Positions 53,687 through 54,324 of a stretch of DNA of 56,556 nt are shown in pieces; within the stretch, counting starts at the first letter, position 1; every line of letters begins with the position of its first letter. The notes beneath the pieces are model-generated. The model was given only the letters and a program-made list of their open reading frames with translations, did not search any database and was not told the DNA's origin. The stretch lies in IMG/VR virus record IMGVR_UViG_3300009529_000009; one strand, 5' to 3'. The translations under genes and the position numbers were made by a program. Origin of the DNA: a virus.

Positions 53687-53712
53687 GGGGGTGTCGGGAA
53701 ACCGACACCCCC
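53687..53712 (+). promoter_or_regulatory. Perfect 11-bp stem / GAAA tetraloop hairpin between MVP-like gene and GroES-like gene
   Basis: gggggtgtcgg-gaaa-ccgacaccccc. No T-tract follows. An RBS AGGAGG follows immediately. Confidence 0.6.
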
Positions 53713-53730
53713 TACTTCCAGGAGGACACA

Positions 53731-54324
53731 ATGAACGAAGAAGCAGCTGATCTGAACACGGCGGAAGAACCAGTCGACGCAGAATGGGGCGAGGGCGACC
53801 CGCGCTGGTCACAGGACCCTGTGGCCCCCGATCCGGATGGCCCATGCGGCCCGCGACTCTTCGGCCGGGGCGAGTGCCCGTTCGTGCCCACGGGCAAGTA
53901 CCTGATCCTCTGGGTGAAGCCGATCGAATTCTTCTCCAGGCAGGGTCTGATCGTGCCGACACAGACCGGAGGACCTGGGGGCTATCAGTGCCCGATCCTC
54001 ACTGTGATCGACGCCGGGCCGGAGGCCACGCGGTACCGTAGGGGTGACACGGTCGTGGCCAACCCCCGTAATGCTGAGGTGACCTACGAGTGGAGCGATC
54101 CCGAAGGGCTCGGCACTGAGCACTTCCTGTTTGTCAACGAGGACAACATCATCGGCCTCATTGACCAGGAGGTCGTCGGGCAGTTCTCGATCCGGGCGCA
54201 GCGCGTTCAGCGAGAGCAGACGCAACGGCTCACGGATATGCAGCGTTCGGAAGCTGTCGGACTGTCTGTGCCCGACGAGAAGGTGATTCTCGGACCGAGT
54301 GGGGTACCGGCGAAGGACGACTGA
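53731..54324 (+). CDS. GroES/Cpn10-like co-chaperonin with ~75-aa acidic N-terminal extension
   Basis: YLILWVKPIEFF...GLIVP...ILTVIDAGPEA...RGDTVV...EHFLFVNEDNIIGLID aligns to GroES (VLVKRVE...GIVLP...GEVVAVGPG...VGDKVLF...EEYLILRESDILAVIE). AGGAGG RBS. Start 53731 is preferred over the track start at 53539. Confidence 0.75.
   Translation: MNEEAADLNTAEEPVDAEWGEGDPRWSQDPVAPDPDGPCGPRLFGRGECPFVPTGKYLILWVKPIEFFSRQGLIVPTQTGGPGGYQCPILTVIDAGPEATRYRRGDTVVANPRNAEVTYEWSDPEGLGTEHFLFVNEDNIIGLIDQEVVGQFSIRAQRVQREQTQRLTDMQRSEAVGLSVPDEKVILGPSGVPAKDD

Follow-up and report, generated by a model that had tools for sequence, protein, structure and literature searches.

The open reading frame (ORF) at positions 53,731 to 54,324 of the phage DNA analyzed here most likely encodes a GroES-like protein of the T4 gp31 type. 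As a whole, the data are best explained by a gp31-type co-chaperonin gene, a clade-specific insertion of an MVP-like gene directly upstream of it, and a leaky hairpin between the two genes, a reading to which a probability of about 0.6 is assigned. That the encoded protein acts as a GroEL co-chaperonin is considered probable to a similar degree, and the Cpn10-type fold of its core is regarded as highly probable.

The analyzed stretch of DNA, referred to as the window, comprises 56,556 bp and originates from an uncultured phage (IMG/VR record IMGVR_UViG_3300009529_000009). Comparison of the whole window with itself revealed that it is its own exact reverse complement (0 mismatches) and thus consists of two copies of a 28,278-bp unit. 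These meet at 28278|28279 without a spacer, where an ORF is cut, the surviving part of which resembles the C-terminal half of an XRE-type HTH (RCASQVSQIERGKYEISVALAQKIAKALNVKLS...). The perfect palindrome is most likely a fold-back chimera arising from amplification or assembly. Because the window is palindromic, each feature is present twice, and the mirror at 2233..2870 mentioned in an earlier reading made from the sequence only (the sequence-only reading) does exist, but represents the same sequence again and provides no independent information. The features relevant to this study are as follows:

50708..51007, + strand: RHH-type small gene, overlapping the start of the MVP-like gene by 41 nt; in distant relatives, it is the conserved neighbour ahead of the GroES-like gene
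50967..53669, + strand: MVP-like gene, 900 aa (895 aa by other gene callers), with matches to PF11978 MVP_shoulder (1.3e-17) and Vault_3 (5e-5)
53686..53713, + strand: perfect 12-bp stem (11 G/C-rich pairs plus one A-U pair) with GAAA tetraloop, within the 61 nt that separate the MVP-like gene from the GroES-like gene
53720..53725, + strand: Shine-Dalgarno sequence AGGAGG, 5 nt before the ATG, kept as AGGAGG/AGGAGA in the related loci L001 and L009
53731..54324, + strand: candidate gene for a GroES/gp31-like co-chaperonin, 197 aa plus stop, based on ORF, family, profile and fold evidence
53731..53877, + strand: acidic N-terminal segment, residues 1-49 (13 D/E versus 3 K/R)
53878..54165, + strand: Cpn10-fold beta-barrel core without roof, residues 50-145, deduced from profile alignment, AF2 and Foldseek
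53926..53988, + strand: equivalent of the mobile loop with G72-L-I-V, residues 66-86, deduced from AF2 disorder and the GroES alignment
54166..54321, + strand: C-terminal helix (146-175) and conserved tail, residues 146-197, deduced from the AF2 model
54448..54543, + strand: long stem (54448-54534) followed by UCUCUUUAU, a likely intrinsic terminator of the transcription unit, deduced from stem and U-tract
54582..54609, + strand: sigma-70-like promoter match TTGATC-16-TATACT where the next gene begins (consensus match only)
2233..2871, - strand: hairpin and GroES-like gene as repeated by the palindrome, the window being its own reverse complement; no independent copy

The unit encodes a UDG-PolA fusion as well as RecA-like, FEN, Mre11-like, Rad50-like and SSB-like proteins, and also a T4-type portal, HU and holin-like proteins. 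It is derived from a phage with a T4-type portal, which shares only 22-25% identity with the portals of isolate phages. A capsid gene was not found in the 28-kb unit, and neither was a Cpn60 domain (Pfam; the unit being the sequenced part of the genome only). In the half of the window containing the GroES-like gene, all genes are located on the + strand, and the - strand carries no plausible genes.

Several further observations were made in the unit. The ORF at 29614-32400 represents a single gene product of 928 aa, namely a family A DNA polymerase with an N-terminal domain of the uracil-DNA-glycosylase superfamily. An ORF of approximately 1,005 aa (42250-45267) matched PHROGs of the large-terminase type, with helicase-loader and primase families matching the same ATPase region, and contains a LAGLIDADG-type insert, which is probably an intein. 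At the other end of the unit, two independent contigs of the same phage, L003 (Logan, ~56409) and L004 (JGI, ~56427), stop within ~150 bp of the window end, and divergence or an insertion was found around 56324-56341 in L004 and L011. This accumulation of contig ends near ~56258-56430 points to a repeat or variable boundary and not to contigs breaking at random.

Family, fold and extensions of the GroES-like protein

The gene start at 53731 with its AGGAGG ribosome binding site (53720-53725), as proposed in the sequence-only reading, was confirmed, giving an ORF of 197 aa that extends to 54324. Its product remained without any match in Pfam, even at E ≤ 1, and in NCBIfam, and nothing useful was obtained from PHROGs or PADLOC. 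The PDB yielded no match, either by phmmer or with a profile of four sequences, and a profile of nine family sequences retrieved only non-significant PDB matches (E 0.15-2), mostly GroES-fold proteins. In a tblastn search of 50,697 isolate phage records, no match to the GroES-like protein was found. The known family originates from metagenomes only and comprises three relatives at 59-63% identity and about ten more at 25-36%. An exhaustive search of 1.84 billion representative proteins with the family profile detected P0013 (119 aa, E 7e-4), which alone exceeds the Pfam cut-off for Cpn10 (25.1 versus 21.1 bits). Below this cut-off of 21.1 bits, Cpn10 matches were obtained for P0004 (E 0.063, 13.8 bits) and P0005 (E 0.0095, 16.4 bits), one of them spanning the whole domain and the other most of it. 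By the curated sequence threshold, the window protein itself does not belong to Cpn10/GroES (PF00166).

A relationship to GroES became visible at the level of profiles. The family was aligned by hhalign with five canonical GroES sequences, whose profile retrieves only solved co-chaperonins from the PDB. The alignment extended over the whole domain with a probability of 83-87% and E-values of 4-8e-6, these being pairwise values uncorrected for a database search. Family residues 50-144 pair with GroES residues 2-95, and the family invariants P53, G96 and G105-D106 coincide with the landmark residues P5, G44 and G62-D63 of GroES, respectively. Furthermore, G72-L-I-V is aligned with G24-I-V-L of GroES, the GroEL-binding tripeptide. 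G72 is invariant in the family, and in 12 of the 14 members, three small or hydrophobic residues come after the Gly, the other two carrying S or Q at the second position. The Gly and three hydrophobic residues of the mobile loop have been described as a functional hallmark, with polar substitutions occurring in 23% of viral co-chaperonins (PMC5649160). The mobile loop of the family is approximately four residues longer than that of GroES. Opposite GroES residues ~47-55, a gap of nine residues was found, so that the roof beta-hairpin is without counterpart in the family.

Structure prediction led to the same assignment. The AF2 model, calculated for the monomer only from 11 sequences, reached a pLDDT of 73.8 and a pTM of 0.64, with a confident beta-core in which most blocks ranged at ~80-94; an earlier model based on four sequences (pLDDT 58) was too weak for use. 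Segment 68-86 was predicted to be disordered (pLDDT <50) and lies between the strands 57-65 and 87-95, which places the Gly and hydrophobic triplet in a flexible loop. Foldseek searches with the model against the PDB listed gp31 first (E 4.5e-3), with Hsp10 also among the top matches, indicating a beta-barrel of the GroES type. Matches among the viral models of BFVD were mostly annotated as "Co-chaperonin GroES", and in three structure searches, co-chaperonins ranked above all other GroES-fold proteins. The "clear Cpn10 core" of the sequence-only reading is therefore present according to hhalign and fold, but it is not clear by sequence, Pfam, NCBIfam and PDB searches being blank. Moreover, it had been placed at residues 76-198, and its actual span is ~50-145.

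The core is flanked by conserved sequence on both sides, and about half of the protein is conserved outside the Cpn10 core. The N-terminal extension is Asp/Glu-rich as described before, but measures 49 aa instead of roughly 75 aa. E18, W19, D23, W26, R46 and C49 represent conserved columns in this segment, and residues 20-56 were modeled confidently (pLDDT means of 81-94 for 10-residue blocks). The N-terminal segment could occupy surfaces that GroES uses for heptamer formation. The 52-aa C-terminal helix and tail seen in the AF2 model had been overlooked previously; in this region, D145, Q151, R155, G191 and P193 are kept family-wide.

The intergenic hairpin and the putative transcription unit

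The 900-aa MVP-like ORF ends with a TAG stop codon, which is followed by the 61-nt spacer holding the hairpin. The stem arms GGGGGTGTCGG and CCGACACCCCC (53687-53697 and 53702-53712) enclose the GAAA loop (53698-53701), in agreement with the perfect 11-bp stem reported at 53687..53712, and one extra A-U pair (53686/53713) extends the stem to 12 bp. For the hairpin alone, the RNA folding calculation suggested in the sequence-only reading yielded -26.3 kcal/mol, a stability that only one other local hairpin exceeds on the + strand of the 28-kb unit. Equal stability was reached in one out of five composition-shuffled 28-kb sequences, and stability alone is thus not beyond chance.

In three lineages with 59-73% identity between the flanking proteins, the spacer has hardly changed. 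Across these lineages, the loop stays GNRA (GAAA, GAAA and GAGA), and the sole change in the 11-bp core stem converts a U-A into a U.G pair, which is able to pair only in + strand RNA. L001 and L009 no longer form the outer A-U pair. When covariation was counted formally over the three lineages, 10 out of 12 pairs proved invariant, and compensatory double changes were absent. Rfam contained no family for the hairpin or the downstream spacer, only a chance-level miRNA match being returned, and a pattern scan of IMG/VR detected the hairpin motif only in this phage lineage.

The absence of a T-tract noted in the sequence-only reading was confirmed: the stem is followed by TACTTCC on the + strand (UACUUCC in the transcript), and a T-run (TGGTTTTCC) is found on the - strand only, so that an intrinsic terminator would have its stem but not its tail. 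At most, GUUU occurs 3-4 nt past the stem in the hairpins of L001 and L009. It is plausible that the hairpin represents a stability or processing element and not a terminator. We infer that it would act as an internal element of the + strand mRNA, either as a leaky terminator or as a barrier to 3' exonucleases, favouring the MVP-like message.

Alternatively, the hairpin could be the intrinsic terminator of the MVP-like transcript, an antisense terminator of the - strand, or a DNA operator for a dimeric regulator such as an RHH protein. This is considered doubtful. A very stable G/C-rich stem placed just past a stop codon would suit a terminator, the - strand does carry UGGUUUUCC after the stem, and conservation without covariation fits a DNA binding site equally well. 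However, the coding strand lacks a U-tract, yet the same genome possesses hairpins with U-tracts (56110-56148 and 54448-54543), and for an antisense terminator, it has to be considered that the genes of this half are all encoded on the + strand. Furthermore, the single stem change pairs only as + strand RNA, the loop remains of the GNRA type, and no promoter-like site adjoins the hairpin. Sequestration of the ribosome binding site was also examined and rejected: an outer pairing of GUGGGGG with the Shine-Dalgarno region is possible in the window, but was not kept in L001 or L009.

Regarding the hairpin as an internal mRNA element, the putative transcription unit would start at a promoter-like site at 50161, proceed through orf155, the RHH gene, the MVP-like gene, the hairpin and the GroES-like gene, and end at the terminator near 54540, as deduced from consensus matches. 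In L001, the counterpart of the long stem of this likely terminator is retained despite several changes, with UUCUUUUU coming after it.

The non-coding spacer downstream of the GroES-like gene (54325-54581, 257 nt) has a high degree of structure (MFE -114.4, z -3.9). Only two changes compared to L001 were found towards the apex of the long stem (~54463-54517), the nearby coding DNA being 72-80% identical. This spacer could be more than a terminator, e.g., a small RNA. In L010-L012 (97-99% identical), the similarity ends at 54628; it resumes at 56042 in L011 and L012, and no further match was detected in L010. In the relatives, the PAPS-reductase-like gene and orf210 located between 54628 and 56042 are replaced by a different cassette of ~3 kb, which gives this region the look of a hypervariable cassette site. 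No hairpin of the unit is stronger than the one at 56110-56143 (56110-56148 with tail; 15 bp, -32.3 kcal/mol), which is followed by GUUUUGG, then by an AT-rich perfect palindrome of 12 bp (GTTGAAAAACTT-cac-AAGTTTTTCAAC) and a sigma-70-like promoter (TTGACT-16-TATACT), all within 56110-56213. The successive ORFs at 55369 and 56220 have a 10-residue sequence in common at or near their N-termini. By analogy, these elements and the N-terminal repeat recall the promoter/stem-loop repeats by which T4-like phages shuffle early-gene cassettes.

Relation to known co-chaperonins

Phage co-chaperonins show how viruses retune the folding machinery of their hosts, T4 gp31 being the textbook case. The gp31 sequence used here is identical to PDB 1G31. 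Compared to gp31 alone, the family reached an hhalign probability of only 34% (E 4e-4), with 32% identity over 56 columns, no gap at the position of the roof and a common VGPDV...GD stretch. The relationship to gp31 is only marginal by sequence; by structure, gp31 was the best PDB match of Foldseek. Like gp31 (PDB 1G31, 2CGT) and RB49 CocO, the family features a long mobile loop with the motif [S/G]-G-L-I-[I/V], is devoid of the roof hairpin, and comes from a phage that has a T4-type portal and in whose sequenced part no GroEL gene is present. The combination of roofless dome, extended loop and phage context, with no Cpn60 in the sequenced 28-kb unit, corresponds to the gp31 type. The resemblance to T4 drawn in the sequence-only reading therefore holds for the missing roof hairpin and the portal, but not for the folding partnership with the MVP-like protein. 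Unlike gp31 (111 aa), the window protein comprises 197 aa, and the acidic N-terminal segment of 49 aa and the C-terminal segment of 52 aa have no counterpart in gp31 or CocO.

With the cellular GroES/Cpn10/Hsp10 proteins (PF00166), the family shares the alignment over the full domain and the landmarks (P, G-hydrophobic triplet, G and G-D). It differs from them in remaining below the Pfam and NCBIfam thresholds, in the deletion of the nine-residue roof hairpin, in the loop extended by ~4 residues and in its doubled length. Lone viral co-chaperonins have been reported to be common, with some clusters lacking the roof hairpin (Marine et al. 2017, PMC5649160). The family resembles these virioplankton co-chaperonins in having no adjoining GroEL gene, in the missing roof of some of them, and in the Gly and hydrophobic residues, which are usually kept with occasional polar substitutions. 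Proteins of this kind also make up most of the BFVD fold matches. However, the virioplankton proteins were recognized by their cpn10 domain, which the window family escapes, and neither terminal extensions nor an RHH-linked gene order were described in PMC5649160. The family thus differs from all characterized co-chaperonins by its conserved N- and C-terminal additions and by a conserved gene order tied to an RHH gene.

The preferred reading assumes a GroES-fold subunit without roof hairpin, bearing a long flexible mobile loop with a Gly-Leu-Ile-Val motif for GroEL binding, to which the acidic N-terminal segment and the C-terminal helix and tail would be family-specific additions. From the observed fold, motifs, gene order and conservation, we infer that the subunits would form a ring capping the host GroEL and aid the folding of one or more phage proteins. 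By analogy to T4, the likeliest client would be a head protein and not the 100-kDa MVP-like neighbour. Points against this reading are the blank sequence searches with the window protein, the low hhalign probability obtained with gp31 alone, the half of the protein outside the Cpn10 core with an N-terminal segment that could cover heptamer surfaces, and the absence of a capsid gene from the 28-kb unit.

It is unlikely, in our view, that the GroES-like fold was instead recruited for another purpose, such as a structural or assembly protein or a partner of the RHH protein, in which case the extensions would carry the function and the protein would not be a co-chaperonin. The position below all curated Cpn10 thresholds is compatible with such a role, as are the conserved non-Cpn10 half of the protein and the tight coupling to the RHH gene in distant relatives, where the genes overlap. 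However, co-chaperonins surpassed the other GroES-fold proteins in all three structure searches, the disordered loop bears the invariant Gly and the hydrophobic triplet exactly at the position where GroES binds GroEL, and no defence-system or other family was matched in PADLOC, NCBIfam or PHROGs. Interpretation of the RHH and GroES-like genes as an RHH-antitoxin/toxin pair was dismissed as the main model, since structure and motifs all favour co-chaperonins and neither NCBIfam nor PADLOC yielded a toxin or defence family.

The MVP-like neighbour and gene order in related phages

For the MVP-like protein, more than 5,600 relatives were counted. The 120 that were listed all align over at least 96% of the query, most of them with 41-48% identity. 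Many relatives reside on large bacterial contigs, e.g., of Nannocystis, Microscillaceae and Melainabacteria. Bacterial and phage MVPs have already been described (bioRxiv 10.1101/872010 and 10.1101/2023.11.10.566534), the 2023 preprint (10.1101/2023.11.10.566534) reporting the first phage MVPs, from the human gut. The small RHH protein encoded upstream possesses an Arg/Gly/Pro-rich N-terminus (RGGRRPGAGRRPKPP), and the precomputed Pfam RHH_1 match of its orthologue in L005/L006 is weak.

In the clade of the window, the gene order is RHH, MVP-like, hairpin and GroES-like. This order was found in L003, L004, L010-L012 and L019 (97-100% protein identity) as well as in L001 (62%) and L009 (59%). 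In the more distant loci L002, L005/L006, L008 and L013 (25-36% identical), the RHH gene is located directly before the GroES-like gene, overlapping it where gene calls show this, with no MVP-like gene in between; L013 is possibly a member of the L005 lineage. A gene of the PAPS-reductase family follows next after the GroES-like gene in L005 and L008. Conversely, inspection of all frames within 4-5 kb revealed no GroES-like gene around the next-nearest MVP-like genes, namely those of L014 (48%), L015/16 (45%) and the Nannocystis chromosome L017. The small genes following other MVP-like genes (109 aa in L014 and 167 aa in L015) were tested as GroES-like candidates and proved not to be so.

Since there are relatives without the MVP-like gene and MVP-like genes without a GroES-like neighbour, the adjacency is read as a recent, clade-specific insertion and not as a functional pairing. 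On the most economical view, a module of RHH and GroES-like genes, possibly continued by the PAPS-reductase-like gene, would have existed before, and the window clade would have gained within it an MVP-like gene of probably bacterial origin together with its 3' hairpin and a fresh ribosome binding site. Apparently, a single phage clade has taken up the MVP-like gene. Upstream of the module, an ORF (49302-49835) matching only the C-terminal end of the anaerobic ribonucleotide reductase NrdD (Pfam NRDD, 531-561 of 562) is kept in L001, L005 and L013; going by this match, it may be a stand-alone glycyl-radical 'spare part' protein.

The proposal of the sequence-only reading that the GroES-like protein assists folding of the MVP-like protein is not supported by this gene order. 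As a dedicated helper, it would fold the adjoining MVP-like protein, and the two genes would represent a functional pair, which is now considered improbable. The genes do adjoin each other on the same strand in L001, L003, L009 and L010-L012, and the region between them is strongly conserved across the lineages of the window clade. However, the four distant loci keep the RHH and GroES-like genes together without an MVP-like gene between them, and the MVP-like genes of L014, L015/16 and L017 lack the GroES-like neighbour. The MVP-like chain of ~100 kDa is also too large for the cis cavity of GroEL, which has a capacity of ~60 kDa. In addition, many of the numerous MVP-like relatives are bacterial, and a chaperonin is mentioned in neither of the two preprints on bacterial and phage MVPs (bioRxiv 10.1101/872010, 10.1101/2023.11.10.566534). 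Very improbable, finally, is that the extensions turn the roofless ring into an open or enlarged GroEL lid for very large phage proteins, or into a GroEL-independent assembly factor; if true, the 100-kDa MVP-like protein would perhaps be among the clients, and the adjacency to the vault-like gene would be kept because both cooperate.

For the gp31-type co-chaperonin with a clade-specific MVP-like insertion, synteny corrects a tempting, yet mistaken, guilt-by-association inference on phage-borne vault-like proteins. Furthermore, the GroES-like family is missed by domain searches, which suggests that viral co-chaperonins may be under-counted. With its two conserved extensions doubling the subunit size on a roofless, long-loop, gp31-like design, this family represents a natural experiment on lid architecture versus the folding range of GroEL.
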